DNA of 64,000 nt. It comes from Candidatus Fervidifonticultor secundus. GTDB taxonomy: Bacteria > Sysuimicrobiota > Sysuimicrobiia > Sysuimicrobiales > Humicultoraceae. The notes below the pieces were generated by a model. The model was given only the letters and a program-made list of their open reading frames with translations, did not search any database and was not told the DNA's origin. The stretch lies in assembly GCA_031459385.1 (NCBI GenBank), contig JAVKIP010000001.1, positions 192,001 to 256,000 on the forward strand. Reading direction: 5' to 3'. Shown here one piece after another: positions 36,259 to 62,315 of the stretch. Every line of letters begins with the position of its first letter. Within the stretch, counting starts at the first letter, position 1. The translations under genes and the position numbers were made by a program.

Positions 36259-36289
36259 GAACGACGCCCCTGCGAGGAGGCCCCTCCCC

Positions 36290-42850: not shown

Positions 42851-43020
42851 GCTTTCCTCCCGACAAGGACGCCATCCGCCAGGGGTTGCTACTCCTGGAG
42901 GAGATAGCCATTACGGGCCTTGTTCCAGTCAGGACACTAGGGAGCCTTGGCGGCGCGGCCCCCGGGGCGACGGGGCTCCTGTGGCGGCCAGGAGGAAAGC
43001 GGCGGTGGGTGCAGAAACTT

Positions 43021-43048
43021 GAAACGATGTTCCATTGACTGGAACGAC
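43021..43048 (+). promoter_or_regulatory. Candidate IclR operator 1 (GTTCCA-N5-TGGAAC)
   Basis: Inverted repeat 43029-43045 just upstream of the hydratase gene; same motif recurs at 46551. Confidence 0.65.
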
Positions 43049-43050
43049 AG

Positions 43051-44313
43051 ATGCCGCCAGTGTCGCCTATGACGCTCACCGAGAAGATCATCGCCCGCGC
43101 GGCGGGGTTGCCGTCCGTGGTGCCCGGCGATGAGGTGTGGGCCAGCGTGGACCTGGCGGCCATGCACGACTCCTCGGGGCCGCGCCGCATCGCGCCGACG
43201 CTGGAGCGCCTGGGCGGCCGCCTGTGGGATCGCTCCCGGATCGTGTTGGCCGTCGACCACTTCACGCCGGCGGCGAACCTCCGCCACGCCGAGATCCTGG
43301 CCACCACCCGCGCGTGGGCCCGGGAGGCGGGCCTCCCGCACTTTTTCGACAGCGTGGGGGTCATGCACAACCTGCTGCTGGAGCAGGGCCTGGCGAAGCC
43401 GGGCACCCTGATCGTGGGGGCGGACTCCCACACGGTCACCGCCGGCGCCATCGGCGCGGTGGCGGTCGGTGTCGGAGCCACGGAACTGGCCACGGTGCTG
43501 GCCACCGGACAGATCTGGCTGAGGGTCCCGCCGACGGTGTTGATCCGCTTCGACGACGCCATGCCAGAGTACCTCACGGCCCGGGATCTCGCCATGGAAG
43601 TGCTGCGGGAACTCGGGGCGGACTTTGCCATCTACCGGGCCGTGGAGTACGCCGGCCAGGCGGTGGAGGCGCTGGATCTGGACGAGCGCGCCGTGCTCGC
43701 CAACCAGGCCATCGAGATGGGGGCGAAGAACGGCATCATCCCGCCCAGCGGGGCAGTTCTGCGGCGGTTTGACCGGGACGTGAGCACGACAGGCCTGCCG
43801 GTGGCGGGCGATCCCGGCTGCGCCCACGAGGCTGTTCACACCTTCAGGCTCTCATCGGTCCCGCCGCTGGTGGCTGCGCCGCCCGACGTGGATCGCGTGA
43901 TACCGGTGCAGGAGGCCGCGGGGCTTTGCCTGGACCGCGCGTACGTCGGGTCGTGCGTCGGAGGAAAGGCGAGGGACCTGCGCGAGGCGGCGCGCGTCCT
44001 CAGGGGAAAGCGGGTGAGGATTCCGCTGACGATCACGCCGGCCACGCAGCAGGTCGTCGTGGAGACCCTGCGCGACGGGACCCTGCAGGCGCTCATCGAG
44101 GCAGGGGCGGTCATCCAGGCCCCGGGATGCGGGGCGTGCGCGGGGCTGCACTCGGGGCTGCTCGGCCCAAAGGAACGGTGCGTCGCCACCGTCACGCGGA
44201 ACTACCCCGGCCGCATGGGCGATCCTACCGCGGAGATCTACCTGGCCTCGCCGCTGACCGTGGCGGCCTCCGCCCTGGCCGGGCGGCTGACCGATCCGAG
44301 AGAGGTCCTCTGA
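43051..44313 (+). CDS. Aconitase-family hydratase/isomerase large subunit (LeuC/DmdA/HacA-like, divergent)
   Basis: TLTEKII, AVDH, GADSHT, GSC and CGAC [4Fe-4S] ligands, RNYPGRMG, YLASP; start 43051 or 43069. Confidence 0.9.
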   Translation: MPPVSPMTLTEKIIARAAGLPSVVPGDEVWASVDLAAMHDSSGPRRIAPTLERLGGRLWDRSRIVLAVDHFTPAANLRHAEILATTRAWAREAGLPHFFDSVGVMHNLLLEQGLAKPGTLIVGADSHTVTAGAIGAVAVGVGATELATVLATGQIWLRVPPTVLIRFDDAMPEYLTARDLAMEVLRELGADFAIYRAVEYAGQAVEALDLDERAVLANQAIEMGAKNGIIPPSGAVLRRFDRDVSTTGLPVAGDPGCAHEAVHTFRLSSVPPLVAAPPDVDRVIPVQEAAGLCLDRAYVGSCVGGKARDLREAARVLRGKRVRIPLTITPATQQVVVETLRDGTLQALIEAGAVIQAPGCGACAGLHSGLLGPKERCVATVTRNYPGRMGDPTAEIYLASPLTVAASALAGRLTDPREVL

Positions 44314-44822
44314 TGCGGTCGGTCCTCGAAGGATGCGCCTGGGTGTTCGGAGATCACGTGAACACCGACCAGATCCTGCCCGGCCGCTTCCTGGACCGGC
44401 CGGCCGAGGAGGCGGGCCGGTACGCGCTCACGGGGCTGGACGCGACCTTCCCCGAGCGGGTGGCGCCGGGAGACTTGGTGGTGGCCGGGGTCAACTTCGG
44501 GTGCGGGTCGAGCCGGGAGACCGCGGTCCTGGCGCTGCAGCAGGCGGGCGTGTCGGCGGTCATCGCGCGGTCGTTCGCGCGCATCTTCTTCCGCAACGCC
44601 ATCAATAACGGCCTCCCCGCCGTCATCGTCGGCGACACCGCAGGCATCGGCCAGGGCGATCGGCTCAGGCTCGATCTGTCGGCCAGGACCGTGACCAACC
44701 TGACCACGGGCGCGGTGCTCCCCGTAGAGAACCTCGCCGGCACGTCCCTGGAGATCCTCCGGCACGGCGGGATCGTCGCCTACACGCTGGCCAGGATCGG
44801 CCAGCGCGGAGGACAGCCGTGA
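44313..44822 (+). CDS. Aconitase-family small (swivel) subunit (LeuD/DmdB-like)
   Basis: VNTDQILPGRF, NFGCGSSRE, SFARIFFRNAINNG. Confidence 0.95.
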   Translation: MRSVLEGCAWVFGDHVNTDQILPGRFLDRPAEEAGRYALTGLDATFPERVAPGDLVVAGVNFGCGSSRETAVLALQQAGVSAVIARSFARIFFRNAINNGLPAVIVGDTAGIGQGDRLRLDLSARTVTNLTTGAVLPVENLAGTSLEILRHGGIVAYTLARIGQRGGQP

Positions 44823-45706
44823 CGGCGGCCTCCCTGCGGCCGTCAACCCGGCTGCGCCACCGGCTGCATACCCCGGCCATCGTCATCGCGCCAGGAGCCC
44901 ACGACGCGCTGACGGCGCGGATCATCGAACGCGCGGGCTTCGAGGCGGTGTACTTCACCGGCGCCGGCTTCTCCTACACCCACCTCGGGGCCCCCGACCT
45001 GGGCCTGGTCAGCCTGACCGAGACGGTCTGGCGCCTGGCCGCGGTGGTGGAGGCGACGGCGCTGCCCGTCATCGCCGACGCGGAGACCGGGTACGGCAAT
45101 GCGCTCGCGCTGCCCCGGACCATGCGGGAGTTCGAGCGGGCCGGCGCCGCGGCGATCCAGCTGGAAGACCAGGTCGCCCCCAAGCGGTGCGGGCACCTGG
45201 TCGGCAAGGCCGTGATTCCCACCGACGAGATGGTCGGAAAGATCCGGGCTGCCGTCGACGGCCGGCAGGATCCCGATCTGCTCATTATCGCCCGCACCGA
45301 CGCCCGGGCCGTGATGGGCCTCGACGCCGCCATCGAGCGGGCGCATCGGTACCGGGAGGCGGGGGCCGACGTTCTGTTTGTGGAAGCGCCTGCGACCAGG
45401 GACGAACTGACCCGCATCGCCCGCGAGCTGGCCCCGCCGGTGATGGCCAACATGGTGGAGGGCGGGACGACGCCGCTGTGCAGCGCCGCGGAACTGGAGG
45501 CGATGGGCTATCGGCTCGTCATCTTCCCCGGGGCGGCGGTCCGCGCGGCCGCGGCGGCCATCATGCGGTTGATGGGGGCCTTGAAGCAGCAGGGCACGAC
45601 CGCAGGGATGCTGGATGAGATGCTCTCCTTCCAGGAGCTCAACGACCTGGTGGGGCTGCAGACGTACCGACGGCTCGAGGAGCGCTACCTGCCCCGGCAA
45701 CGCTGA
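44819..45706 (+). CDS. Isocitrate lyase/PEP mutase superfamily C-C lyase (2,3-dimethylmalate lyase/PrpB-like)
   Basis: PDLGL, ADAETGYG, EDQVAPKRCGH, ARTDA, ANMVEGG.TP. Confidence 0.9.
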   Translation: MTAASLRPSTRLRHRLHTPAIVIAPGAHDALTARIIERAGFEAVYFTGAGFSYTHLGAPDLGLVSLTETVWRLAAVVEATALPVIADAETGYGNALALPRTMREFERAGAAAIQLEDQVAPKRCGHLVGKAVIPTDEMVGKIRAAVDGRQDPDLLIIARTDARAVMGLDAAIERAHRYREAGADVLFVEAPATRDELTRIARELAPPVMANMVEGGTTPLCSAAELEAMGYRLVIFPGAAVRAAAAAIMRLMGALKQQGTTAGMLDEMLSFQELNDLVGLQTYRRLEERYLPRQR

Positions 45707-45727
45707 AGGGGGGTGAGGTCGGCCAAC

Positions 45728-46531
45728 ATGCCGCGACAGCCGTCCGCGAGCGTCCGCAGCGTCGAACGGGCGCTGGACGTCCTGCTCTGCTTCGATTTCG
45801 AATCCCCGCGCCTGGGCGTCAGCGAGATCGCCCGGCGCCTCGGCCTGTCCAAGGGCACCGTGCACCGCCTGCTGGTGGCCCTGGAGCGCCGCGGATTCGT
45901 CCGGCAGGATCCCGCCACCGGCGCCTACACCCCCGGGCTCCAGCTCTTCCGCCTGGGACGGGTGGTGCAGAACGGCATGGAGTTGCGCGCGCAGGCCCTG
46001 CCCGTCATGCGGGAGCTCCAGGGCCAAAGCGGGGAGACGGTCAACCTCAACATCGTGGTCGGCCGGCACCGGGTCTGCGTCGAGAAGGTGGAGAGCCGGC
46101 ACGACGTCCGCCATTTCGTCGAGATCGGGAAACCGCTCCCGCTGCACCTGGGCGCCTCGGGGAAAGTGCTGCTGGCGCACCTCCCCCCGCAGGAGGTCGC
46201 CGCGGTCATCCGGGAGGCCCGGCGGTGGCCCGGCAGCCCCCGGGCCAAACTCGCCGCCCTCCCCCGCCAACTCGCGGAGATCCGCCAGCGCGGCTATGCC
46301 TGGGGGATCAGCGAGCGGGTGCCCGGCGCGTTCTCCGTGAGCGCGCCGATCCGCAACGATACGGGCGAGGTCGTCGCCGGGCTGACCATCTCGGGGCCGG
46401 TGCTCCGGCTGGCCAAGGGGGACATCCCCCGGTTCGCCAGGATGGTCGTGCGGGCTGCGGCCGAGATTTCGGCGTCGCTGGGCTTTCTGGCCGGGGAGCG
46501 CCCCGGCAGGAGTTCGGGGGCGCGGCGATGA
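45728..46531 (+). CDS. IclR family transcriptional regulator
   Basis: SVERALDVL, LSKGTVHRLL, GETVNL, GASGKVLLA, SVSAPI; alternative start 45713. Confidence 0.95.
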   Translation: MPRQPSASVRSVERALDVLLCFDFESPRLGVSEIARRLGLSKGTVHRLLVALERRGFVRQDPATGAYTPGLQLFRLGRVVQNGMELRAQALPVMRELQGQSGETVNLNIVVGRHRVCVEKVESRHDVRHFVEIGKPLPLHLGASGKVLLAHLPPQEVAAVIREARRWPGSPRAKLAALPRQLAEIRQRGYAWGISERVPGAFSVSAPIRNDTGEVVAGLTISGPVLRLAKGDIPRFARMVVRAAAEISASLGFLAGERPGRSSGARR

Positions 46532-46550
46532 AGACGGCGGCGCCGGATCC

Positions 46551-46578
46551 GAAACGTCGTTCTGGTGTACGGAACAAC
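46551..46578 (+). promoter_or_regulatory. Candidate IclR operator 2 (GAAACG-N2-GTTC-N9-GAAC)
   Basis: Same spacing and flanks as the 43021 motif; lies upstream of the SBP gene. Confidence 0.6.
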
Positions 46579-46622
46579 ACGGCGTGGACGGTCTGCGCCA
46601 CGCTGCAAAGGGGGATACGGCC

Positions 46623-47861
46623 ATGAGCAAGCTCACGCGCAGGGAGTTCGTGAAACGGTCGGCTATGCTGGGCGGGGCGGCGGCGCTGACCACTGTGCCG
46701 CAGTGGGCCATCCGCGCCGCGGAAGCCGCCACGCCCGCGGAGGTGAAGATCGGCCACCTCCACCCTCTCTCCGGCGGGCTCGCGCTGGAGGGAGGCGAGA
46801 TGCGCGATGCGATCCTGCTGGCCGCCGACGACGTGAACCGTGCCGGCGGCATCAGGTCACTGGGCGGTGCCAGGGTCACCGTCGTGCACGGGAACACCGA
46901 GGGCTCCCCGGACAAAGGCGCGGCGGAGGCCGAGCGCCTCATCGGCGAAGGCGTCGTCGGGTTGCTGGGAGCCTACCAGAGCGCGGTGGCGTTCGTGACC
47001 ACCCAGGTGGCCGAGCGCCGGCGCATCCCCTACGTCATCACCGTGGCGGTGGCCGACGAGATCCTCGAACGCGGCTTCACCTACTCCTTCCGGGTCCAGC
47101 CCAACTCTACGGCCATGGCCCAGTACGCCGTTGAGTACCTCACCACCCTGGGCAAGATGACCCGCACCCCGGTTCACACCATTACCATCATGCACGAGTC
47201 CAGCATCTTCGGCGTCTCCATCGGCGACCGGCTGGTCCGGTTTGCCGGCCCCGCGGGGCTGCGGATCCTGGAGCGCATCGTCTATCCCACGGCGACCGCC
47301 GACGTCACGACCGAGTGCACCAAGGTGCGGGCGGCGAACCCTGATGTGGCCATCTTCACCGGGTACTTCCGGGATGGTGTGCTGGTCGCGCGCACGATCC
47401 GCGAGGTCGGCCTGCGGGCCAAGGCGATCATGGGCGTCGCCAATGGCGCCTTCAGCCATCCCAGGTTCTCCGGCGAGGCCGGTCCCCTGGCCAGCGAGAA
47501 CGTCATGGACGCCAACTATTACTACAACCCGGTCAACCCCCGGACCCGCGGCGTCTTTCGGGCCTACCGGGAGCGGTTCAATCGCGACATGTCCACCCAC
47601 GCGGTGTACGCGTACGCGGCGACCCGCGTGCTGCTCGACGCCATCGAGCGGGCCGGAGCGGTGGATCCGACGAAGATCCGCGCTGCCCTGGCTGAGACCA
47701 ACATGCGGGACCACATCCTCCCGCAGGCGGAGATCAAGTTCGACAGCAAGGGGGAGAACGTGAACGCCCGCCCGGTGCTGCTGCAGGTGCGCGGCGGAAC
47801 CCCGCGCGTGATCCTCCCGGAGCGCTACGGTGAGATGACACCGGTCTTCCCGGCGATGTGA
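46623..47861 (+). CDS. Liv-type ABC substrate-binding protein with Tat signal
   Basis: LTRREFVK, KIGHLHPLSG, NRAGGI, GAYQS, FRVQP. Confidence 0.9.
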   Translation: MSKLTRREFVKRSAMLGGAAALTTVPQWAIRAAEAATPAEVKIGHLHPLSGGLALEGGEMRDAILLAADDVNRAGGIRSLGGARVTVVHGNTEGSPDKGAAEAERLIGEGVVGLLGAYQSAVAFVTTQVAERRRIPYVITVAVADEILERGFTYSFRVQPNSTAMAQYAVEYLTTLGKMTRTPVHTITIMHESSIFGVSIGDRLVRFAGPAGLRILERIVYPTATADVTTECTKVRAANPDVAIFTGYFRDGVLVARTIREVGLRAKAIMGVANGAFSHPRFSGEAGPLASENVMDANYYYNPVNPRTRGVFRAYRERFNRDMSTHAVYAYAATRVLLDAIERAGAVDPTKIRAALAETNMRDHILPQAEIKFDSKGENVNARPVLLQVRGGTPRVILPERYGEMTPVFPAM

Positions 47862-47906
47862 CGGTGCGGGGCGCACTCCCTCACCGCGCCCTCCCGGGGT
47901 AGTCCC

Positions 47907-48779
47907 GTGCTGCTCCTGCTGGGCCAGGCGGCGGTCACCGGCCTGCTCACCGGGGCGGTCTACGCCCTGGTGGCCGTCGGGCTCACCCTTATCTTCGGCG
48001 TGATGCGTGTGGTGAACTTCGCCCACGGCGCGCTGCTCATGCTGGGGATGTATGCGGCCTACTGGTCCCACGTGCTCCTGGGCGTCAACCCGTACCTCTC
48101 GCTGCCGGTCACCTTCATTTTGCTGTTCGCGCTGGGAGCCGTCATGCAGCGAGGGCTCCTGCAGCCGATCCTGGCGGCTCCCCAGCACAACCAGCTGCTC
48201 CTCACGCTTGGGGTGATGTTGATCATCGAGAACCTGGCGCTCTTCCTGTGGAGCCCCGACTTCCGGACGCTGCGCATCGGATGGCTGGAGGGGGCCGTTC
48301 CGCTGGGCGGGCTGCTGCTCAACAAACCCCGGCTGATCGCCTTCGTCGGCGCCCTGGTGCTCACCGCGGCGCTGTATCTCTTCCTCACCTTCACCGAGCT
48401 GGGGCGTGCCATCCGGGCGACCGCGCAGGATCGGACCGGCGCGTCCCTGGTGGGGGTGAACGTGACGCGGATCAACACCCTGACCTTCGGGCTGGGGGCG
48501 GCCTGCGCGGGGGTGGCCGGGGCGCTCATCGCCCCCTACCTGTACACGGCACCCCAGGTCGGGCACGTCTTCCTGCTCTACGGCTTCGTCGTGGTCGTCC
48601 TGGGGGGCCTGGGGAGCTTCACCGGCGCGCTGGCCGGCGGGCTCCTGATCGGGATCGGCGAGTCATTGGGGGCCGCGCTGCTTCCCGGATCGCTCAAGGA
48701 ACTGGTGGTCTACATCGTCTTCATCCTCGTGCTGCTGTTCCGCCCCACCGGGCTCTTTGGGGTCCCCCACCGTGGGTGA
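47907..48779 (+). CDS. livH: Branched-chain amino acid ABC permease
   Basis: YALVAVGLTLIFGVMRVVNFAHG, GRAIRA, LGGLGS. Confidence 0.9.
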   Translation: MLLLLGQAAVTGLLTGAVYALVAVGLTLIFGVMRVVNFAHGALLMLGMYAAYWSHVLLGVNPYLSLPVTFILLFALGAVMQRGLLQPILAAPQHNQLLLTLGVMLIIENLALFLWSPDFRTLRIGWLEGAVPLGGLLLNKPRLIAFVGALVLTAALYLFLTFTELGRAIRATAQDRTGASLVGVNVTRINTLTFGLGAACAGVAGALIAPYLYTAPQVGHVFLLYGFVVVVLGGLGSFTGALAGGLLIGIGESLGAALLPGSLKELVVYIVFILVLLFRPTGLFGVPHRG

Positions 48780-49767
48780 GGCGCCCGTTTCGGTCCGGAC
48801 CCTTTCAGCGGTCCCGAAGGTCCCCCTGGCGCTCGGCGGCCTGGTGCTGGCCGCCCTCGTATTGGGGGCGCCGCTGGTGGCCACACCCTACCTCCTGCGC
48901 ATCCTCATCATGACCTTCTACGGAGCCTACCTGGCCCAGAGTTGGAACCTCGTGGGCGGGTACGCCGGACAGTTCTCCTTCGGCCACGCAACGTTCTTCG
49001 GGCTGGGGGCGTACACCACGGCACTCCTCTTCGCCAAGGGCGGGATCAGCCCGTGGCTGGGGATGTTGGTCGGGGCCATCCTGGCCGCCGGGGCAGGCGT
49101 GTTCATCGGGTTCCTCAGTTTCCGCTACGGCCTGCGGGGGCCGTATTTCGCCCTCGTCACCCTGGCCTTCGCCGAGGTCTGCCGCATCGCCGTGACCAAC
49201 TGGCGGGCCCTGGGTGGCGGCATGGGGGTCCTGATCCCGCTCCGCCAGTCCCCGTGGACCCTCCAGTTTTCGGAACCCGCGGCGTACTACTACATCATCG
49301 TGACGATGACCGCGGGCATCTCGATGCTGGCGCTGGTGCTGGAGCGCTCCCGCCTGGGCGTCTTCATGGAGGCCGTCCGCGAGGACGCCGATGCGGCGGA
49401 GGCCCTGGGCGTGGACACGACCCGCACGCGCCTGACCGCCATGGGGCTCAGCGCCTTCTGCACGGCCCTGGCGGGCACGTTCTACGTGCAGTTCTTCTCC
49501 TATGTGGACCCCCACCTGGCCTTCGGCATCGACGTCTCCATCGCGGCCATCCTGCCCAACATCATCGGCGGCACCGGCACGGCGCTGGGACCGCTGGCCG
49601 GGAGCGCCATCCTCATCCCGCTCGGCGAATGGATGCGGGCCTACCTGGGCGGCTACCGCGGCGTCCACCTGATGATCTACGGGGCCATCCTGGTGGTGGC
49701 CATCATCTTCCTCCCTCGCGGTCTCGTGGGGGCGATCCGGCGCTGGTGGGGGAACAGGACGCCATGA
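48772..49767 (+). CDS. livM: Branched-chain amino acid ABC permease
   Basis: WNLVGGYAGQFSFGHA, GPYFALVTLAFAE, AVREDADAAEALGV. Confidence 0.9.
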   Translation: MGEAPVSVRTLSAVPKVPLALGGLVLAALVLGAPLVATPYLLRILIMTFYGAYLAQSWNLVGGYAGQFSFGHATFFGLGAYTTALLFAKGGISPWLGMLVGAILAAGAGVFIGFLSFRYGLRGPYFALVTLAFAEVCRIAVTNWRALGGGMGVLIPLRQSPWTLQFSEPAAYYYIIVTMTAGISMLALVLERSRLGVFMEAVREDADAAEALGVDTTRTRLTAMGLSAFCTALAGTFYVQFFSYVDPHLAFGIDVSIAAILPNIIGGTGTALGPLAGSAILIPLGEWMRAYLGGYRGVHLMIYGAILVVAIIFLPRGLVGAIRRWWGNRTP

Positions 49768-50481
49768 GTCTGCTGGCGGCGCGTGGCCTGGTGAAGCGGT
49801 TCGGTGGCCTGGTCGCCGTCAACCGGGTCAGCCTGCACGTGGAGGCGGGGGAGATCGTGGGCCTGATCGGCCCCAACGGCGCCGGCAAGACCACCGTCTT
49901 CAACCTCCTCTCCGGATTTCTCCGGCCCGACGAAGGGTCGGTGCGCCTCGACGGGCGCGAGCTGGTGGGCCGGCGCCCCTTTGAGATCTGCCGCCTCGGG
50001 CTGGTCCGGACGTTTCAGATCGTCCGGCCCTTCGCCGACCTCCCGGTGCTGCGCAACGTCATGGTCGGCGCATGGGCCCGTGCCTCCGAGTCCAGGGCCG
50101 CGCGTGGGATCGCCGAGGAGTGCCTGGCGTTCGTCGGACTGTCGGACAAGGGCGCGGTGCCGGCCCGCGACCTGACCATCAGCGAGCAACGACGCCTGGA
50201 GGTGGCGCGCGCGCTGGCCACCCGGCCCCGGCTGCTCCTCCTGGACGAAGTGATGGCCGGGTTGAACCCGCACGAGGTCGAGGTGATGAGCGATCTGCTG
50301 CGCCAGCTGGTCGGCCGCGGGATCACGCTGCTGCTCATCGAGCACGTCATGCGCGCGGTGATGCGCACCTGCCACCGCGTCATGGTCCTCCACCACGGCG
50401 AGAAGGTCGCCGACGGGCCGCCGGCGCAGGTGGCCCAGGATCGCCAGGTAATCGACGCCTACCTGGGAGAGGCGGCGTTGC

Positions 50482-50489
<8 letters not shown>
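49764..50489 (+). CDS. livG: Branched-chain amino acid ABC ATP-binding protein
   Basis: KRFGGLVAV, GPNGAGKTT, RTFQ, LLDE, IEH, VIDAYLG. Confidence 0.95.
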
Positions 50490-51186
<697 letters not shown>

Positions 51187-51189
51187 GCG

Positions 51190-52560
51190 ATGCGGTGGGA
51201 TGCCGAGACCGACGCGGTCGTGGTCGGGGCAGGCGCATGCGGACTGGCTGCCTCGCTGACGTTGGCCCAGGAGGGCTGCGACGTCGTGCTGCTCGAGAAG
51301 GGCCGGCGCATCGGCGGGAACACCGCGATCAGCACCGCGATGATCCCCGCCGCGGCCTCGCGGCAGCAGCGCGACCTGGGCATCCGGGACTCACCCGAGC
51401 AGATGGCCTCGGACATTTTGACCAAGGCGGGGCCCGGGGCGGATCGGGATCACGTCCTGGAACTCTGCCGGCGGTCGGCTGAACTCGTCGACTGGCTGAT
51501 CGATGCCGGCGTGCCGCTGCGGCTGGTGACCGATTTCCTCTACACAGGCCAGTCGGTCCCGCGCTTCCACGCTCCGCCCTCGCGCCAGGGGAAGGATCTG
51601 GTAGTCCCGCTGGGCGATGCCGTCGCCGCCACCGGCCGGGTGACCGTGGTTACCTCGGCGCCGGTGCACCGGCTCATCGTCGATGACGCCGGCGCGGTCG
51701 TCGGCGTCGAGGCCGGCGAGATGCACGAGCGGATCGGCGCGCGCTCCGTCGTGCTCGCCGCCTGCGGGTTCGGCGGCAACCCCGAGATGGTCGGCACCTA
51801 CTGTCCGGAGATCGCCGGGGCCCTCTACTTCGGCGAACGGACCGTGACCGGAGACGCGATTCGCTGGGGCATGGCGCTGGGGGCAGAGACCCGCTGCATG
51901 GACGCCTATCAGGGCCACGGCACCGTGGCAATCCCCCACGGCGTCCTGTTGAGCTGGGCCGCGGTCGAGAAGGGCGGGTGCCTCGTCAACGTCCAGGGGG
52001 TGCGCTTCGCCAACGAGGACCTCGGCTACAGCACCTTCGGAGCCCTGGTGATGCGCCAGCCGGAGGGGCTGGCGTTCGTGATCTTCGACAGCCGCATCGA
52101 CGCGGAGATGACATCCCACGACCAGAACTACCGGGAACTGGACGCCCTGGCCGGCATCCGCCGCGCGGGATCGTTGGCCGACCTGGCTGACCGGCTGGGG
52201 CTGCCGGGGCCAGCCCTCACCCGCACAGTTGAGGCGCTCAACGCCGGCCTCCAGGCAGGGTGCGACCCGCTGGGCCGCTCGCCCGGACAGCGTCGGCCGC
52301 TGGAAGCACCTTACTGCGGGGTGAAGGTCACCGGGGCGCTGTTCCACACCCAGGGCGGGTTGGCCATCGACACCGCGGGCCGGGTGCTGCGTCCGGGCGG
52401 ACGGCCGGTCGTCAATCTCTTCGCCGGCGGCGGCAGCGCCGTGGGCATCTCGGGCCACGGCGCCGCCGGGTACTCGCCCGGCAACGGGTTGCTGACCGCG
52501 CTGGGATGGGGCCGCATCGCGGGCCTGACCGCCGCCCGCCAGGTCCGGAGGGGAGCATGA
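51190..52560 (+). CDS. FAD-dependent oxidoreductase (fumarate reductase/flavocytochrome c/TcuA-like flavoprotein family)
   Basis: VVGAGACG, GGNT, LAACGFGGN, RFANE, FHTQGGL, NLFAGG, GNGL. Confidence 0.85.
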   Translation: MRWDAETDAVVVGAGACGLAASLTLAQEGCDVVLLEKGRRIGGNTAISTAMIPAAASRQQRDLGIRDSPEQMASDILTKAGPGADRDHVLELCRRSAELVDWLIDAGVPLRLVTDFLYTGQSVPRFHAPPSRQGKDLVVPLGDAVAATGRVTVVTSAPVHRLIVDDAGAVVGVEAGEMHERIGARSVVLAACGFGGNPEMVGTYCPEIAGALYFGERTVTGDAIRWGMALGAETRCMDAYQGHGTVAIPHGVLLSWAAVEKGGCLVNVQGVRFANEDLGYSTFGALVMRQPEGLAFVIFDSRIDAEMTSHDQNYRELDALAGIRRAGSLADLADRLGLPGPALTRTVEALNAGLQAGCDPLGRSPGQRRPLEAPYCGVKVTGALFHTQGGLAIDTAGRVLRPGGRPVVNLFAGGGSAVGISGHGAAGYSPGNGLLTALGWGRIAGLTAARQVRRGA

Positions 52561-52797
52561 CGCCGGAAGCGCAGCTCGCGGCGTTCGCGTGCACGCTGCG
52601 GCCCGCCCACCTGCCCGGGCCGGTCGCTGCGCGCGCGGCTGGTGGTGATCGACACGCTCAGTTCGATCATCGATGGGATGCTCACCATCCTGCTGGCTGT
52701 GGCCGGGACCGGCCTGCTGGCTGCCTTCGGTCTGGGGCGCCTGGCGGGGCGCGGCGCCGCCGGGGCCGCAGACCGGCTCGAGGCGCAGGCGGAGTGA
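52557..52797 (+). pseudogene. MmgE/PrpD N-terminal relic, frameshifted and fused to a hydrophobic C-terminal fragment of another gene
   Basis: MTPEAQLAAFACTLRPAHLPGPVAARA, then frameshift to RLVVIDTLSSIIDGM, then LTILLAVAGTGLLAAFGLGR..stop 52797; ATGA overlap and GGAG RBS. Confidence 0.65.
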
Positions 52798-52832
52798 GGC
52801 GAGGGAGACCGATCAGGGAGGGGTGAGCAGCC

Positions 52833-54323
52833 ATGGCACGCTGGGATCTTGCGGTGGTGAACGGTACGGTCGTAATCCCCTACACCGGCGCGGTCCGGGC
52901 TGACGTGGGCGTCCGCCACGGGCAAATCGCCGCGCTCGCCGACGCCATCGACCCCGCTTCGGCGGACGAGGTCATCGACGCAGCGGGGCGCCTGGTCCTG
53001 CCCGGGGCGATCGACTCTCACTTCCACCTGGGGATCTACCGCTCGATGGCAGAAGACACCGGGTCCGAGACCCGGTCGGCGCTGGCCGGTGGCGTGACCT
53101 CGGTCATCAGTTACTTCCGCACCGGCCAGCACTACCTCAACAGGACCGGCCCCTACCGCGACATCTTCCCCGAGGTGCTGGGTCTCGTCGGGGGCCGCGC
53201 CTACACCGACTACGGCTTCCACATCGCCATCATGACCGCCGACCAGCTCGAGGAGGTGGACTGGCTGGTCGGCTCCCAGGGCGTGGCCTCGTTCAAGTAC
53301 TACATGTTCTACAAAGGGTTGAATCTCACGGCCGACTCCACCCGCGGCAGCGACTACACCATGTCCGAGTCCTACGACCTGGGGCACCTCTACCTCCTCA
53401 TGCGGCAGGTGGCCGCGGCGGCCCGGCGGGTCGGATCGGCGGGACGGATTTCCCTCAGCCTGCACTGCGAGCACGCCGAGTTGATCCGGGTGTTCATCGA
53501 CGAGGTGAAGCGGGCCGGGCTCGCCGGCCTGGAAGCCTACCACCGGGCCCGCCCGCCGCTGACCGAACGGCTCTCGATGGCCGAGGCGGTCATCCTGGCC
53601 GACGCGGTGCGCTGTCCGATCAACCTGCTGCACCTGAGCAGCCGGGAGGCGATCAGTGCGGCGTCGGAGGCCAAGCGGGACCACCCCCACCTGGACGTCC
53701 GGCTGGAGACCACCCTGCACCATCTGGCGCTCACGTACGCCACGGCCGGCGGGCTGTGGGGCAAGGTCAACCCGCCCATCCGCACCGAGGATGACCGCGC
53801 CGCGCTCTGGGAGGCGGTCGCAGATGGCAGAATCGACACCGTTGTCAGCGACCATGCCTGCTGCTTCGAGGAGCAGAAGGGCGAAGACCTCTGGAAGGCG
53901 CTGCCGGGGTTCGGCGGCACTGCGCTGCTCTATCCCTATCTCATCTCAGAGGGCGTTCACCGGCGGGGTCTGCCGCTGGCGCGGATCGCCGAACTGGCCA
54001 GCGCGAACTCCGCCCGGGCCTTCGGCCTCTACCCGCGGAAGGGCACGATCGCGCCGGGCAGCGATGCCGATCTGACCGTCGTCGATCCGGACAGGGAGCA
54101 GGTGGTCTCCCCGGCCCTGCTGCTCTCCGCGCAGGATTTCACGCCGTTTGCCGGCATGCGGGTCCGCGGCTGGCCCACGCATACGGTGCTACGGGGCCGG
54201 CTCGTGTACCGGGACGGCGAGCTGACCGCCCCGCCGACCGGGCGGTATCTGCGCAGACCCGTCGGCCTGCATGAGGTGCCGGCAGAGGTGCCGCCGGCTG
54301 CGGCCAGGGGCGGGCGGATGTGA
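52833..54323 (+). CDS. Cyclic amidohydrolase (dihydroorotase/allantoinase/hydantoinase family)
   Basis: PGAIDSHFH, GGVT, SFKYYM, LHCE, LLHLS, KVNPPIR, SDHA, YPRKG..GSDAD. Confidence 0.9.
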   Translation: MARWDLAVVNGTVVIPYTGAVRADVGVRHGQIAALADAIDPASADEVIDAAGRLVLPGAIDSHFHLGIYRSMAEDTGSETRSALAGGVTSVISYFRTGQHYLNRTGPYRDIFPEVLGLVGGRAYTDYGFHIAIMTADQLEEVDWLVGSQGVASFKYYMFYKGLNLTADSTRGSDYTMSESYDLGHLYLLMRQVAAAARRVGSAGRISLSLHCEHAELIRVFIDEVKRAGLAGLEAYHRARPPLTERLSMAEAVILADAVRCPINLLHLSSREAISAASEAKRDHPHLDVRLETTLHHLALTYATAGGLWGKVNPPIRTEDDRAALWEAVADGRIDTVVSDHACCFEEQKGEDLWKALPGFGGTALLYPYLISEGVHRRGLPLARIAELASANSARAFGLYPRKGTIAPGSDADLTVVDPDREQVVSPALLLSAQDFTPFAGMRVRGWPTHTVLRGRLVYRDGELTAPPTGRYLRRPVGLHEVPAEVPPAAARGGRM

Positions 54324-54458
54324 CGCGGCCGTCCGCAGCGCGGTGTCGGGGCGAGGCGGCCCGAACTCCGTTGCCTAAGGGATCTGCCCCCCGGATCTTC
54401 CCTCCAGTAAAGGCCGTTGTGTGGGCGGCACGCGGCCAGGCCAGTGGTCCCCCTAGGC

Positions 54459-55425
54459 TGTCCTGTTTCGCATTAGTGTTGACAGTAGAGGAGGGCCATG
54501 TGACGAATCCTACCCGCTGGACACCAACCCCGTCCGGGTTGACGGGGAGGACCGCCCATGACCCTCACCGACAGTGTACACGTCTTCCGGCTCCGTGTGA
54601 TCGCCCGGGCCCAGGCCCTGAGGAACGTCAGCCAGGCGTGCCGGGAGTTCGGCATCTCCCGCACGCTGTTCTACCGATGGCGCCGTCGCTACCTGGCCTA
54701 CGGTCCGGATGGTTTGCATCCCCGCCGTCAGGGTCCCGGGCGGGGTCGGCCACCCACCCTGACCGCGCAGGAGGAGCGCGCTATTCTGGCGCTCGCCGTC
54801 GCATGGCCGACATGGGGGCCGGCCCGATTGCCGCCCAGCTGGCGCAGCAGGCCCGGCACATCGAGGCGCGCCGTCCCGGCGAAGTGGTCTGTGTCGATAC
54901 GTTCTACATCGGTAAGCTCAAGGGGGTCGGCAAAGTCTGGCAGTACACCGCCTGCGATGCAGCATGCTCGTATGCCATCGCCGAGGTGTCGACCGAGTTC
55001 TCGGCCCGGGCGGCAGCCCGTTTCCTGACCGGGCGAGTCGGGCCGGCCTATCAGAAGGCGGGCTGGATCATCCAGTGGGTCCTGACCGATCAGGGCAGCG
55101 AGTACCGGGGGGCGTTCGATCAGGCCTGTCGGGCGCTGGGAATCCAGCACACGCGGACCCAACCCCGCCATGCCTGGACCAACGGCTTCGTCGAGCGCCT
55201 GCAAGGCACCATCCTGAGCGAGCTGTGGCGCCTGGAGTTCCGCCGACGCTTCTTCACCCGCGTGGTGACCATGCAGGACGCTCTGGATCGCTACCTGACG
55301 TTCTACAATCACCACCGTCCCCACCTGGGGTATCGGACCCGAGGTCGTACCCCTGGCGAGCTCTTCATGCACCACAAGGAGGTCTCCTCATGAGCAAGGT
55401 GTCAACACCCTTCCGGAACTTGACA
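54459..55425 (+). mobile_element. IS481-family insertion sequence, degenerate
   Basis: TGT...ACA ends; 26-bp imperfect terminal IRs (19/26 match); flanking 8-bp direct repeat CCCTAGGC at 54451-54458 and 55426-55433. Confidence 0.9.
54558..55393 (+). pseudogene. IS481-family DDE transposase, frameshifted at about 54825 and apparently internally deleted
   Basis: HTH (VSQACREFGISRTLFYRW..WGP) in one frame; integrase core (VDTF, LTDQGSEY, TNGFVERL, YNHHRPH) in another. Confidence 0.85.
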
Positions 55426-55712: not shown

Positions 55713-55849
55713 GCCCCGTGCAGGTCCTTGGGTGGGCCGGAACAGCCGTCGTGGTCTACCCGTATCTGCCGCAGATCGTCCGCCTTGAGCGAGCGCGTGG
55801 GGTGCCGCGACGGACGGCCGCAGGCTGGTGTGGTCCTCATGCCGCGTAG
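55709..55849 (+). pseudogene. Truncated PQ-loop/SemiSWEET-like membrane protein
   Basis: MSPVQVLGWAGTAVVVYPYLPQIVRL (TM plus PQ motif), ATGA-coupled to the FNR fragment, ends after 46 aa inside the convergent permease gene. Confidence 0.5.
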
Positions 55850-56736
55850 CGCAGCCGCGGGTCGAGGAAGTCGCGCAGCCCGTCGCCCAGCAGGTTCAGC
55901 GCCAGCACCGTCAAGATGATGGCCGCGCCGGGGAAGATGCTGATCCACCAGGCCTGCTGCACGTAGAGCTGCCCGCTGGCGATGAGGCCGCCCCAGGTGG
56001 GGATCTCGGGCGGCACGCCCACGCCCAGGAAGCTCAGGGCCGCCTCGCCCAGCATGGCGTAGGCTGCGATGAAGGTGGCCTGCACGATCACGGGCGAGAC
56101 GCTGTTGGCCAGCACATGACGCACCAGGATGCGGCCGCCCGAGGCGCCGACGGCCCGCGCGGCGTCCACGAACTCCTGGTGGACGATGACCAGCACCGAA
56201 GCCCGCACGACCCGCGCCACCCTGGGCGTGTAGACGAAGCTGAGGGCGATGATGACGTTACGCAGGCTGGGGCCCAGGGCCGCCATGAGGGCGATGGCCA
56301 GCAGGATGTCGGGGAAAGCCATCAAGCCGTCCATCACCCGCATGATGACGCGGTCCAGGCGCGGGCTCGCCCCGGCCACGAGCCCCACGATGACGCCGGC
56401 GCAGATGGCCAGCGCCGTCACCAGCGCGCCCACCAGCAGTGACAGGCGCGCGCCGAACATCACGCGGCTGAGCACGTCGCGGCCGAAGTCGTCGGTGCCG
56501 AACCGGTGCCGGGCGCCGGGTCCCTGCAGCCGCGCCGGCGGATCAAGTTCCAGCGGATCGTAGGGCGCGAGCCACGGGGCCGCCACGGCCACGGCCACCA
56601 TGGCCGCCAGGATGGCCGCGCCCAGGCCGATGACGCGGCGCCGGCGGATCATGCGCGCAACGAGCGCCACCACCCCGGGCCGCCGTCCGTCTGCGGCACC
56701 GGGCCGCGCTGGCCGGGCGAGGGCCGCGCCGCGCAT
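55837..56736 (-). CDS. Peptide/nickel ABC transporter permease (DppC-like)
   Basis: FGTDDFGRD, FVDAARAVGA, SFLGVGVPPEIPTWG, GDGLRD. Confidence 0.95.
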   Translation of the reverse strand: MRGAALARPARPGAADGRRPGVVALVARMIRRRRVIGLGAAILAAMVAVAVAAPWLAPYDPLELDPPARLQGPGARHRFGTDDFGRDVLSRVMFGARLSLLVGALVTALAICAGVIVGLVAGASPRLDRVIMRVMDGLMAFPDILLAIALMAALGPSLRNVIIALSFVYTPRVARVVRASVLVIVHQEFVDAARAVGASGGRILVRHVLANSVSPVIVQATFIAAYAMLGEAALSFLGVGVPPEIPTWGGLIASGQLYVQQAWWISIFPGAAIILTVLALNLLGDGLRDFLDPRLRYAA

Positions 56737-56737
56737 C

Positions 56738-57679
56738 TCAGTACTTCACCCGGGGGTCCACGGCCAGGTAGAGCACATCGACGACCAGGTTGATCAGGAC
56801 GTAGCTGGTGGTGACCACCAGCGTCACGCCCTGTATCACCGGGTAGTCCCTGCGCAGCACCGAGGAGACCACGAGCTGGCCCAGGCCCGGGATCGCGAAG
56901 ACCGTCTCGGTCACCACCGCGCCGCCCATGAGCGCCGCGAACGTCAGCCCTACCACGGTGAGGATCGGCACCAGCGCGTTGCGCAGGGCATGCCGGAAGA
57001 TCACCACCCGCTCCGCCAGGCCCTTGGCCCGCGCCGTGCGCACGTAGTCGGCGCCGATCACGTCCAGCAGGCTGCTGCGCACGAAGCGGATGATGAGCGC
57101 CGAGTTGGGCAGCCCCAGGGCCAGCGCCGGCAGGATCAGATGACGGACGCTGGGCCAGAGCCCCTCGGTGAGCGGTTTGAACCCCGACGAGGGCAACCAG
57201 CCGAATCCCACGGCGAACACTACGATCAGCGACAGTCCCAGCCAGAAACTGGGGACCGCCGCGCCGAGCAGGGCCAGGGCCAGGCTGGCCTGGTCGAGCC
57301 ATGAGTTGCGGAAGACGGCCGAGACGATCCCGACGGGGATGCCGATGCACAGGGCCACGGTGATGGCCACCAGCGAGAGCATCATCGTTGGGCCGATGTG
57401 CTGCGCGATGATCCGACGGACGGGGAGCCGGTTGAAGTAGGAGACGCCCAGGTCGCCGCGGAGGGCCCGCCCTGTCCACAGACCGAACTGGACCACCAGC
57501 GGCCGGTCGAGGCCCAGGTGGCGGCGCAGGGCCTGCACCTGCTCGGGCCGGGCGTCCTCTCCTAGCAGCACGCGCACCGGGTCGCCGGGGGTGAAGCGCG
57601 TGAGGCCGAACACCACCGCGGCGACCACCAGGAGCACCGGCACCAGGGCCAGGACCCGTCCGGCCAGGTACGACGTCAC
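56738..57679 (-). CDS. Peptide/nickel ABC transporter permease (DppB-like)
   Basis: PGDP, LGLDRP, DYVRTARAKG, HALRNAL; GTG start about 57679. Confidence 0.95.
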   Translation of the reverse strand: MTSYLAGRVLALVPVLLVVAAVVFGLTRFTPGDPVRVLLGEDARPEQVQALRRHLGLDRPLVVQFGLWTGRALRGDLGVSYFNRLPVRRIIAQHIGPTMMLSLVAITVALCIGIPVGIVSAVFRNSWLDQASLALALLGAAVPSFWLGLSLIVVFAVGFGWLPSSGFKPLTEGLWPSVRHLILPALALGLPNSALIIRFVRSSLLDVIGADYVRTARAKGLAERVVIFRHALRNALVPILTVVGLTFAALMGGAVVTETVFAIPGLGQLVVSSVLRRDYPVIQGVTLVVTTSYVLINLVVDVLYLAVDPRVKY

Positions 57680-57728
57680 GGGGGAGCCTCGGCGGGCGCG
57701 GGCACGGGGGACGCTGACGCACACGCCG

Positions 57729-57760
57729 CGCGGGCCGGCGCCAGAAGGCGCCGGCCCGCG
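57729..57760 (-). terminator. Perfect 14-bp GC stem-loop downstream of the SBP gene (attenuator or mRNA-stabilising hairpin)
   Basis: cgcgggccggcgcc-agaa-ggcgccggcccgcg; no U-tract. Confidence 0.55.
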
Positions 57761-57794
57761 TTGCGGCTAGGTCCGCACAGGGCGCGTCACCCGG

Positions 57795-59351: not shown

Positions 59352-59453
59352 GCCAATCCCCCCTGGGAACGAGTGACGTGCCCGGTGCGATATCGGGAAC
59401 CCGTCGGCCAGTATTCGAACGCCTCGGGGCCCTCTCCTGCGGCTGCGGTGCCC

Positions 59454-60125: not shown

Positions 60126-60142
60126 GGCGCGCCGCCGGGCGC

Positions 60143-62300: not shown

Positions 62301-62315
62301 CCGTCGGGCGCCCCG

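Follow-up and report, generated by a model that had tools for sequence, protein, structure and literature searches.

A mobile gene island in Candidatus Fervidifonticultor secundus with a putative cyclic-amide pathway built on an aconitase-family hydratase and a C-C lyase

Introduction

The logic of hydrating a substrate and then cleaving a carbon-carbon bond is already known from DmdAB/Dml and from the PrpD, aconitase and PrpB steps of the methylcitrate cycle. In the nicotinate fermentation of Eubacterium barkeri, hydration by DmdAB is followed by the 2,3-dimethylmalate lyase Dml, and an enamidase opens the cyclic amide earlier in the pathway. The petal death protein (PDP) has 2-alkylmalate and oxaloacetate lyase specificity, and bacterial cyclic-imide metabolism combines an imidase with a half-amidase and leads from maleimide via maleate to D-malate, with HbzIJ as maleate hydratase. 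Here, we describe a gene island within a 64,000-nucleotide stretch of Candidatus Fervidifonticultor secundus (GenBank assembly GCA_031459385.1, contig JAVKIP010000001.1, positions 192,001 to 256,000; hereafter the window), which encodes a two-subunit [4Fe-4S] hydratase of the aconitase family, a C-C lyase and a cyclic amidohydrolase (AMIDO), together with an IclR-family regulator, an importer and a flavoprotein.

The hydratase is annotated as a leucine-biosynthetic enzyme in related genomes, and our data place it in a separate subfamily that is linked to the lyase across phyla. Whether hydratase, lyase and amidohydrolase form the core of an IclR-controlled mobile catabolic island is, judged from their sequences, an evenly balanced question. 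In the literature searched the module is uncharacterised: no title or abstract describing this gene set or a bacterial maleimide pathway was found, with many subscription papers outside the search, nor did we find an open paper describing the genes of bacterial cyclic-imide metabolism and HbzIJ.

Results

Gene content of the island

Pfam and NCBIfam profile searches identified 11 intact genes between 43051 and 54323, all on the plus strand, with spacings ranging from overlaps to 52 nt and a single exception of 272 nt between the flavoprotein and amidohydrolase genes. Gene content and order are as in the initial annotation, which had described a co-oriented, tightly spaced cluster without leuA or leuB: neither gene was found in or beside the cluster in Pfam, NCBIfam and open reading frame (ORF) scans, and the motifs it had quoted (HDSSGPRR, GVMH, GSCVGGK, TVTRN, the CGAC cysteines, KRCGH and NMVEGG) are all present in the translations. 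The limits of the island are given by comparison with G007, a genome from a different genus of the same family. The following features were assigned:

42937..54427, plus strand: extent of the island, the stretch in common with G007 at about 95% nucleotide identity (blastn)
43051..44313 (start possibly 43069), plus strand: large subunit (LSU) of an aconitase-family [4Fe-4S] hydratase, DS[SGA]GPRR subfamily (PF00330, NF001614)
44313..44822, plus strand: small subunit (SSU) of the hydratase, GSSRE intact, specificity loop PGRFLDR (TIGR02087, LeuD/DmdB family)
44819..45706, plus strand: C-C lyase of the phosphoenolpyruvate (PEP)-mutase/isocitrate-lyase superfamily, petal-death-protein/dimethylmalate-lyase-like (PF13714, KRCGH, NMVEGG)
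45713..46531, plus strand: IclR-family regulator (closest NCBIfam model BhcR, 190 bits, cutoff 350)
46584..47861, plus strand: substrate-binding protein (SBP), Liv-type (Peripla_BP_6), with twin-arginine translocation (TAT) signal (Pfam/NCBIfam, solved relative 8WCH)
47907-48779 and 48757-49767 (second start uncertain), plus strand: two BPD_transp_2 permeases (Pfam)
About 49764-50489 and 50482-51186, plus strand: two ATP-binding cassette (ABC) ATPases (Pfam; first start set by orthologue alignment)
51190..52560, plus strand: soluble FAD_binding_2 flavoprotein, fumarate-reductase/ketosteroid-dehydrogenase-like (Pfam, NCBIfam, residue alignment)
52557..52702, plus strand: relic, first approximately 48 codons of an MmgE/PrpD-family gene, frame shifted by a 2-bp deletion (comparison with G007)
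52703..52797, plus strand: relic, 3' end (about 95 nt) of a second flavoprotein gene (comparison with G007)
52833..54323, plus strand: AMIDO, D-hydantoinase/dihydropyrimidinase-like binuclear-metal cyclic amidohydrolase (Pfam, NCBIfam, ligand alignment)
54558-55028 (helix-turn-helix frame) and 54320-55393 (rve core frame), plus strand: IS481-type transposase at the right edge of the island (Pfam, NCBIfam)

The window has a G+C content of about 72%. The stretch is present in 4 DNA sequencing runs of one study labelled hot springs metagenome, one of them possibly its source; the same search listed one further DNA run with a small share and no RNA runs.

A hydratase subfamily apart from LeuCD

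The two hydratase subunits miss every LeuC, LeuD and HacA/B equivalog cutoff of NCBIfam. The LSU scores 460.5 bits with NF001614 (cutoff 385), lies above the subfamily cutoffs of hacA_fam (415.8) and IPMI_arch (430.3), and stays below the LeuC equivalog cutoffs of TIGR02083 (348 vs 610.65) and TIGR00170 (173.8 vs 560.25). Likewise, the SSU reaches 176.1 bits with the "LeuD/DmdB family" model TIGR02087 (cutoff 108.95) and falls below the leuD equivalog TIGR02084 (132.9 vs 245.85). The best solved relatives of the LSU are the M. jannaschii isopropylmalate/citramalate isomerase and homoaconitase, its closest named homologues come from metagenome-assembled genomes (MAGs) of Armatimonadota, and homologues of the subfamily carry the source annotation 3-isopropylmalate dehydratase. 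Two further LeuC-like genes exist in the same genome, on contigs C59 and C58. The gene on C59 encodes a canonical LeuC (620.4, cutoff 610.65) within an ilvB-ilvC-leuA-leuC-leuD-cimA-leuB locus.

For the phylogeny, 90 LeuC-like rows from 80 genome-contig loci, the own genome and relatives were aligned and analysed in a quick IQ-TREE search with midpoint root and SH-like approximate likelihood ratio test (SH-aLRT) support. A DS[SGA]GPRR segment is present in all 42 rows of one group and in none of the 48 other LeuC-like rows. This group consists of the window clade (8 rows, SH-aLRT 100), with Armatimonadota-like genomes and one Limnochordales MAG, and a proteobacterial clade (34 rows, SH-aLRT 100), and the own canonical LeuC is placed in a different starred clade from the window LSU. 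Because the equivalog cutoffs are missed, a canonical locus exists on C59 and the LSU falls into a separate clade of the 90-row tree, we conclude that the hydratase is not LeuCD, which upholds the initial annotation on this point.

By alignment, the LSU cysteines C302, C360 and C363 equal aconitase C358, C421 and C424, and H106, D125-S126-H127, R383 and R388 equal H147, D165-S166-H167, R447 and R452; D69-H70, taken as the equivalents of D100-H101, lie outside the aconitase alignment and were matched by reading to the M. jannaschii isomerase only. The GSSRE segment of the SSU, which bears the catalytic Ser (aconitase Ser642), is intact. The alignments thus identify the catalytic apparatus of the aconitase/isopropylmalate (IPM)-isomerase superfamily as intact with one departure, N446 to Thr, a position at which the window clade has Thr and proteobacteria mostly have Ala, with Asn or Ser in some. 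The TVTRN motif was also considered as a replacement of catalytic Ser642 and rejected, as the aconitase alignment gives N446-R447, part of the cluster/substrate environment. GSCVGGK, proposed earlier as a distinguishing motif, had to be abandoned: real LeuC rows show GSCTGGK, and G007 and sister clusters have GSCAGGK. The SSU specificity loop reads PGR[FY]L[DE]R in the window clade, APGxYMK in proteobacteria and PARYL[NV] in canonical LeuD. From these residues we infer that the invariant Arg-Arg of the LSU and the basic residue of the SSU loop could form a pocket for a polar or anionic substituent.

Several other LeuC-like loci deserve a mention in their own right. Contig C58 (L085 2883-9151) has a third LeuCD-like pair beside a LeuA/homocitrate-synthase-like gene, a PaaK-like CoA ligase and subunits of an indolepyruvate/2-oxoacid ferredoxin oxidoreductase, and may be a 2-oxoacid elongation or aromatic-acid locus. 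A gamma-proteobacterial (Chromatiaceae-type) variant (L033, L049, L056, L067) has LLDSGGPRR and CGACAA as context of the third cluster ligand; its flanks include a short-chain dehydrogenase/reductase (SDR), a UbiD-like decarboxylase (L049, L056, L067) and a thiamine pyrophosphate enzyme (L033). Three divergent LeuC-like genes with long tree branches lie together with an MmgE/PrpD-like gene at one locus of a Peptococcaceae MAG (L042). In the L094-type protein P0094, large and small subunits of the subfamily are fused in one chain of 622 residues.

The lyase resembles petal death protein and dimethylmalate lyase

The lyase matches PF13714 with 167.8 bits, and its best solved relative is PDP (PDB 1zlp, 232.8 bits), followed by a protein annotated as carboxyphosphonoenolpyruvate (CPEP) mutase (211.6), the fungal 2,3-dimethylmalate lyase (DML) 3fa3 (204.4) and methylisocitrate lyases (about 200). 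It lies below both PrpB equivalog cutoffs (TIGR02317, 315.8 vs 354.4; NF008455, 263.4 vs 353). In the active-site segment, the window protein has N-M-V-E-G-G, PDP N-M-I-E-G-G, DML N-M-V-E-H-G and E. coli PrpB N-I-T-E-F-G; the gating loop KRCGH aligns with KKCGH in PDP and with KRCGH in both DML and PrpB. By family placement, the protein is a member of the PEP-mutase/isocitrate-lyase superfamily and not a PrpB. The initial annotation had seen it nearer to the dimethylmalate-lyase type than to PrpB, in agreement with the PDP and DML scores, the MVEGG motif and the missed PrpB cutoffs.

A paralog of the lyase (56% identity) is located on contig C9 (L087 6360-8710, minus strand), where it immediately precedes an intact PrpD-like gene; of the ORFs called in the vicinity, none was noted as a synthase.

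Conservation of the module across genomes

The lyase gene is adjacent to the LSU-SSU pair in 29 of the 42 subfamily loci compared with 0 of the 48 other LeuC-like loci, and this neighbourhood result is in line with the linkage anticipated in the initial annotation. The module occurs in Armatimonadota-like bacteria, Limnochordales and alpha-, beta- and gamma-proteobacteria, and its carriers include cultured ones such as Oryzisolibacter propanilivorax EPL6, whose locus L011 reads TctC-LSU-SSU-lyase.

Orthologues with at least 72% identity are present in seven of 40 relatives (G001, G002, G003, G004, G007, G012, G030). The G007 cluster has the order LSU, SSU, lyase, IclR, SBP, two permeases, two ATPases, flavoprotein, MmgE/PrpD 1, MmgE/PrpD 2, flavoprotein 2 and AMIDO, and G001 and G002 share this order without flavoprotein 2. 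Short forms with contiguous LSU-SSU-lyase-AMIDO occur in G030, G003, G004, G012 and L014, with IclR and transporter in some. A metagenome scan added 15 loci at 70% identity or more, 10 of which have the LSU-SSU-lyase-AMIDO order and four of which are ended by a contig edge (L117, L118, L119, L120); IclR is directly upstream in L108, L109, L112-L115, L119 and L120. AMIDO follows the lyase in the same orientation after about 20-80 nt in the five short-form loci named above and in 10 metagenome loci, whereas other genes separate the two in the four long-form clusters, window included. The conserved unit of this lineage is therefore IclR-LSU-SSU-lyase-AMIDO, with importer, flavoprotein and PrpD genes as accessory members. 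Conservation of the whole gene set, as it had been put forward, holds for the hydratase-lyase pairing, which extends across phyla, and not for importer, flavoprotein and PrpD genes as fixed members. The importer type varies between Liv-type, Dpp/Opp-type, tripartite tricarboxylate (TTT) and tripartite ATP-independent periplasmic (TRAP) systems.

Three further layouts were distinguished. Type A comprises eight loci, mostly labelled alpha-proteobacterial (L006, L008, L010, L013, L020, L029, L039, L074), with GntR, a Liv-type ABC system, LSU, SSU, lyase, HyuB, HyuA, an isochorismatase-family protein, a flavoprotein and a SnoaL-like protein. Only L029 (4582-19996) has the full layout, and the other loci have subsets. 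HyuB/HyuA together with LSU and SSU are present in 8/8 Type A loci, where the HyuAB pair, of the ATP-dependent lactamase type, takes the place of AMIDO; lyase and isochorismatase-family protein were detected in 7/8 (neither in L020). The best models for the Type A HyuAB proteins are the caprolactamase subunits CapA (533.8 bits) and CapB (322 bits), both below cutoff. The isochorismatase-family protein matches RutB and BiuH weakly, and its family includes the maleamate amidohydrolase NicF. L029 additionally has a TctC receptor gene between its HyuB and HyuA genes.

Type B (L005, L019, L022, L075, plus the cut locus L009) combines acyl-activating and DUF35-SDR genes, a PF04199 cyclase/formamidase, an Asp/Glu/hydantoin-racemase-family protein, LSU, SSU and AMIDO; in L022 a flavoprotein is also present. 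A PALP gene in Type B was not retained for the pathway, since its score of 546.7 (cutoff 387) marks it as cysteine synthase A; it is probably an unrelated neighbour. In Type C (L002, L012, L017), acyl-CoA dehydrogenase, MaoC, CoA-transferase III, LSU, SSU and MmgE/PrpD are accompanied by a distant flavoprotein. An Asp/Glu-racemase-family protein lies near the module in Type B, L103 and L110; this family includes maleate isomerase.

Behind AMIDO, Dpp/Opp-type transport genes and one or two M20 genes follow in L108, L109, L113, L103 and L014, and DUF3891 follows the short-form cluster in L113 and L014. The M20 genes were considered as carbamoylases and discarded, as they match the dipeptidase-type models PRK06446 and PRK08201 below cutoff and no carbamoylase model was among the matches listed. 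L103 also has a xanthine-dehydrogenase-type molybdoenzyme beside its Asp/Glu-racemase-family gene.

Amidohydrolase, importer and flavoprotein

Aligned to 5ykd, 1nfg and 1gkp, AMIDO retains the metal ligands (HxH, the carbamylated-Lys position, His183, His239 and Asp316) and Tyr155, and has Asn in place of the Ser of the S-P-P-[FL]-R segment. It lies below the equivalog cutoffs of TIGR02033 (250.8 vs 393.25) and PRK13404 (263.3 vs 647), as well as those of the allantoinase and dihydroorotase models. The ligand pattern assigns the protein to the binuclear-metal cyclic amidohydrolases as a D-hydantoinase-like member. D-hydantoinases serve as imidases on glutarimides (PMC13098106, PMC11424739).

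The best solved relative of the SBP is 8WCH (164 bits; next best 82), which is SAR11_0655 in complex with L-pyroglutamate. SAR11_0655 has a Kd below 5 nM for L-pyroglutamate, leaves L-proline unbound, and has the 5-oxoprolinase genes pxpABC as neighbours (PMC11485210).

The flavoprotein matches TIGR01813 with 233.7 (cutoff 285.45). Compared with flavocytochrome c3 (Fcc3), R402 and R545 are replaced by Tyr, E378 by Trp and R381 by Val, and H365 and H504 are kept; the Tyr/Tyr/Trp combination with both His is found in 12/12 module-linked orthologues from two phyla (44-100% identity), the R381 position being variable. In this alignment, the protein lacks the catalytic Arg402, the substrate Arg545 and the Glu378-Arg381 proton path of a soluble fumarate reductase of the flavocytochrome c3 type. 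Ketosteroid dehydrogenases use Tyr bases. Because of this parallel and the Tyr replacements, we infer by analogy that a carbonyl compound such as an imide or lactam, and not free succinate, may be what the flavoprotein desaturates. The short-form clusters do without this protein, which makes it accessory.

Regulation

Two palindromes lie in the promoter regions of the island:

43029..43045, no strand: palindrome GTTCCATTGACTGGAAC, predicted IclR operator, 6 nt upstream of the LSU start (exact match, pattern search)
46559..46575, no strand: operator-like palindrome GTTCTGGTGTACGGAAC, one mismatch, in the gap between IclR and SBP genes (pattern search; counterpart in G007, L099 8211)

The window has three matches to the palindrome versus 1.4 expected, two of them at the LSU and SBP promoters. 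GTTCC-N7-GGAAC is found at promoter regions of cluster genes in 9/18 related loci, located upstream of iclR, of the LSU gene, at a divergent transporter promoter, or upstream of a flavoprotein gene (L110, L111), and in G007, G001 and G002 the arms are conserved and the spacer is variable. This pattern suggests that GTTCC-N7-GGAAC is the IclR operator. BhcR, the best model for the window IclR, is glyoxylate-sensing. A simple sigma-70 promoter scan gave 0 sites, and terminator-like sites (6 vs 3.5 expected) all lie within genes and hence were not used.

Deletion of the PrpD genes and lateral transfer

Window positions 42937-52702 align with L099 4590-14355 of G007 at 94.7% identity, and positions 52698-54427 with L099 18203-19931 at 95.0%, collinear with the first block (blastn). 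Relative to the G007 cluster, the window lost 3,847 bp, namely most of MmgE/PrpD 1 (14208-15563), all of MmgE/PrpD 2 (15571-16923) and most of the second FAD_binding_2 gene (16920-18341); both G007 MmgE/PrpD genes have PF03972 and PF19305. The relic starts with an ATG at 52557 that overlaps the flavoprotein stop, and the PrpD 1 fragment is fused to the end of flavoprotein 2. The window copy is a deletion derivative of a longer cluster. The MmgE/PrpD relic noticed from the sequence is real by its synteny with the intact G007 gene, although the window by itself does not reveal it: three frames searched against Pfam at E up to 10 matched 0 families, and tblastn with two PrpD proteins hit the correct place with E of only 15-72. 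The 11 genes left are each as long as in G007, and since their ratios of nonsynonymous to synonymous substitution rates (dN/dS) are 0.11-0.33, they are under purifying selection.

The flanks of the G007 cluster match a different contig of the source genome (C45) at 77-82% nucleotide identity, and the cluster itself is on C1. Because the cluster is about 95% identical compared with 77-82% for these flanks, sequence comparison indicates that the island was recently transferred between two genera of the same family. Past the AMIDO stop, the shared stretch continues for 104 nt, up to the start of the IS481-type element, whose split frames point to a frameshifted copy or to a programmed shift. Other contigs of the genome (C16, C18, C57) carry partial copies of this element.

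Surroundings of the island

The flanks of the island (window 1-42600 and 55800-64000) are dense in genes for taking up and hydrolysing peptides and amides, among them three M19 dipeptidases (10783-11973, 21625-22983, 36143-37372), four or more SBP_bac_5 systems, an M20 ArgE/DapE-type deacylase (28866-30101), an AstE/AspA-type gene, TctA/TctC and, at the window start (1-1284), another hydantoinase-like amidohydrolase. Amidases outside the island are FmdA/AmdA (34286-35254, minus strand) and CN_hydrolase (63138-63995).

Discussion

Based on our data, the odds appear about level for a route that turns a carboxylated cyclic amide or imide into a substituted maleate by ring opening, adds water to it and finally cleaves the product to a 2-oxoacid and a carboxylic acid. 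The Liv-type ABC system would import the carboxylated cyclic amide or imide, the accessory flavoprotein may desaturate or adjust the ring or side chain, and AMIDO would open the ring to a substituted maleamate. The second amide could be removed by an unlinked or co-clustered amidase, such as the isochorismatase-family enzyme in the alphaproteobacterial form, or its loss would be spontaneous in dialkyl-maleamates, whose ammonia loss is a fast intramolecular reaction. The hydratase would then add water to the substituted maleate on its Fe-S cluster, and the lyase would split the 2-hydroxy acid by a retro-aldol reaction into a 2-oxoacid of the glyoxylate or pyruvate type and a carboxylic acid. 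Via the GTTCC-N7-GGAAC operators, IclR may couple expression to the substrate or to the 2-oxoacid product.

Five lines of evidence point to a cyclic amide as substrate: the non-homologous HyuAB replaces AMIDO in the Type A loci, the nearest solved relative of the SBP binds the lactam L-pyroglutamate, AMIDO keeps the metal ligands and Tyr155 of D-hydantoinases, enzymes used as imidases, the Tyr pattern of the flavoprotein recurs in its module-linked orthologues, and members of maleamate-pathway families recur around the module. The hydrate-then-cleave catabolism of a cyclic-amide-type substrate suggested in the initial annotation thus gains from the hydratase-lyase pairing, the HyuAB exchange and the SBP relative, and its step order and substrate stay at the level of a proposal. 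Gene content, conservation, family placement, residue patterns, deletion and transfer are direct results; the chemical steps and their order are all deduced from them.

A number of findings weigh against this pathway. Its weakest point is that the four-gene core has no second amidase, which a plain imide needs; the CN_hydrolase and FmdA/AmdA amidase of the window lie only outside the island. Of the 42 subfamily loci, 13 have no adjacent lyase (some are short contigs), and many proteobacterial loci consist of LSU-SSU-lyase only, with no amide hydrolase and some with TctC or TRAP receptors. In the counter-example L121, the LSU stands at a contig edge and is followed by Opp-type genes, with SSU, lyase and AMIDO unmatched. 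The branch uniting the window and proteobacterial clades has a support of only 82 in a quick tree search. The SBP is about one-third identical to the pyroglutamate binder, as read off the alignment rather than computed, and therefore its ligand may differ. Finally, since Dpp/Opp transporter, M20 genes and DUF3891 follow the short-form clusters, AMIDO might act in peptide or cyclic-dipeptide metabolism instead of supplying the hydratase.

The last point leads to the strongest rival of the cyclic-amide pathway; we consider this rival unlikely and yet worth serious attention. Here, the hydratase-lyase pair would be a self-contained module for free substituted maleates or malates (maleate, citraconate, dimethylmaleate, D-malate or D-citramalate) imported in that form, and AMIDO a separate co-located function, e.g. 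in salvaging nitrogen from ureides, cyclic dipeptides or peptides together with the Dpp/Opp and M20 genes. Such a division would suit the proteobacterial loci with LSU-SSU-lyase alone, some with a TctC/TRAP receptor and no amide hydrolase, the Dpp/Opp-type, M20 and DUF3891 genes behind the short-form AMIDO, and a window region rich in peptide/amide genes. However, AMIDO lies close behind the lyase and co-oriented in the five plus 10 loci described above, two non-homologous ring-opening hydrolases (AMIDO and HyuAB) are found in the same neighbourhood in different phyla, and the Liv-type SBP within the long-form cluster resembles a lactam binder. Besides, the Dpp/M20 synteny is confined to close relatives and therefore may be mere inheritance.

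It is improbable that the window copy is a decaying, non-working remnant. The 3,847-bp deletion took two MmgE/PrpD genes and a flavoprotein gene, the relic is frameshifted by 2 bp, and an IS481-type element with a split frame abuts the island, all of which would be expected of decay; on the other hand, 11 genes are full length with low dN/dS against G007, and what is left corresponds to the widespread free-standing short-form core plus importer and flavoprotein.

We regard as very improbable a variant methylcitrate-type cycle fed by propionate or a related acyl-CoA, in which MmgE/PrpD would dehydrate a 2-alkylcitrate, LSU/SSU would rehydrate it in the role of AcnB and the lyase would act as methylisocitrate lyase. 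The two MmgE/PrpD paralogs beside the flavoprotein in the long-form clusters (G007, G001, G002), prpB as the best NCBIfam model of the lyase (315.8 bits) and the Type C loci, which join LSU-SSU with MmgE/PrpD, CoA-transferase III, MaoC and acyl-CoA dehydrogenase, would fit. Yet none of the clusters examined has a citrate or methylcitrate synthase, the lyase is under both PrpB cutoffs with MVEGG instead of ITEFG, the PrpD genes are absent from the short forms and deleted in the window with the rest under purifying selection, and importer and cyclic amidohydrolase would be without a role in such a cycle.

A role of the hydratase as a second LeuCD/HacAB-type isomerase, with a biosynthetic task in the chain elongation of amino acids or 2-oxoacids, in spite of the hacA_fam and IPMI_arch scores above the subfamily cutoffs and the M. 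jannaschii isomerase and homoaconitase as best solved relatives, has a close to negligible probability: no LeuA/NifV-type synthase or isopropylmalate/homoisocitrate dehydrogenase (IPMDH/HICDH)-type dehydrogenase was found in the cluster, a complete canonical leu locus and a separate LeuCD-like/LeuA-like locus exist elsewhere in the genome, the subfamily is linked to lyase, importers and IclR, and its distribution is patchy (7/40 relatives) on a laterally acquired island.

Returning to the cyclic-amide pathway, a specific version of it is a long shot, namely that the core trio is a dedicated route for maleimides derived from tetrapyrroles, with hematinic acid and methyl-ethyl or methyl-vinyl maleimide as candidates. 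Hematinic acid is a maleimide with a propionate side chain, and maleimide fragments arise from oxidised chlorophyll, heme and bilins. The imidase would open the ring and the dialkyl-maleamate would then shed its ammonia unaided, and such a spontaneous hydrolysis would explain a four-gene core without a second amidase. A dialkyl-maleate or a compound resembling 2-methyl-cis-homoaconitate would then serve the hydratase as substrate. Hematinic acid in its opened form would correspond to a methylated cis-homoaconitate, fitting a HacA-like enzyme with extra arginines, and the Arg-Arg of the LSU and the basic SSU loop would be well matched to the carboxylate of the side chain. Cleavage by the PDP-like lyase would free pyruvate or 2-oxobutyrate together with glutarate or propionate, and flavoproteins and PrpD paralogs may handle vinyl or reduced variants and wrong hydration isomers. 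Leaves and sediments contain maleimides of tetrapyrrole origin such as hematinic acid (PMC7318184).

Independent of the substrate, correcting the 3-isopropylmalate dehydratase annotation of the subfamily would prevent mis-annotation as leucine biosynthesis in many genomes. The three-enzyme core, the SBP and the regulator with its predicted operator offer an entry point for finding the substrate, and the natural deletion together with the recent transfer gives a chance to compare long and short forms of the pathway. If the cyclic-amide pathway is true, the module would add to the known hydrate-then-cleave routes a new one, for substituted maleates that stem from the breakdown of N-heterocycles or cyclic amides. 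If the maleimide version is true, these widespread products of pigment breakdown would gain their first catabolic pathway, which might also give a clue to what the petal death protein naturally does in plants.

Comparison with known systems

The flavoprotein recalls the TcuA tricarballylate route, where a soluble FAD_binding_2 flavoprotein likewise stands beside aconitase-type hydration. However, the TcuA model reaches 164 bits, far under its cutoff of 369, TcuB is absent, and the window flavoprotein has Tyr at both Fcc3 arginine positions. SAR11_0655, the closest solved relative of the SBP, is a Liv-type protein specific for a lactam carboxylate, but shares only about one-third identity and has pxpABC as neighbours rather than a hydratase-lyase set. 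Bacterial cyclic-imide metabolism with HbzIJ resembles the proposed route in hydantoinase-type imide opening, deamidation and LeuCD-like maleate hydration; in contrast, no C-C lyase is described for its scheme, and the island core has no half-amidase.

For the lyase, the petal death protein of carnation is the best solved relative and has N-M-[IV]-E-G-G in common with it, although it is a plant protein for which no partner hydratase is known. With the methylcitrate cycle (PrpD, AcnB, PrpB), the island shares the dehydrate-rehydrate-cleave logic, the PrpD paralogs of the long forms and the KRCGH loop. It differs in lacking the synthase, in using a LeuCD-type hydratase instead of a monomeric aconitase, and in the attached importer and amidohydrolase.

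Unlike the DmdAB/Dml system of nicotinate fermentation, the island clusters examined are without nicotinate dehydrogenase, 6-hydroxynicotinate reductase, B12 mutase and methylitaconate isomerase, and their hosts are hot-spring Armatimonadota-like bacteria and proteobacteria. Nevertheless, both systems pair a LeuCD-type two-subunit Fe-S hydratase with a lyase of the PEP-mutase/isocitrate-lyase superfamily, which in DmdAB/Dml splits a substituted (R)-malate. The window SSU matches the "LeuD/DmdB family" model, a likeness in model name, the window lyase is near the fungal 2,3-dimethylmalate lyase 3fa3, and a dimethylmalate-lyase-type partner is adjacent to the hydratase in 29/42 subfamily loci.

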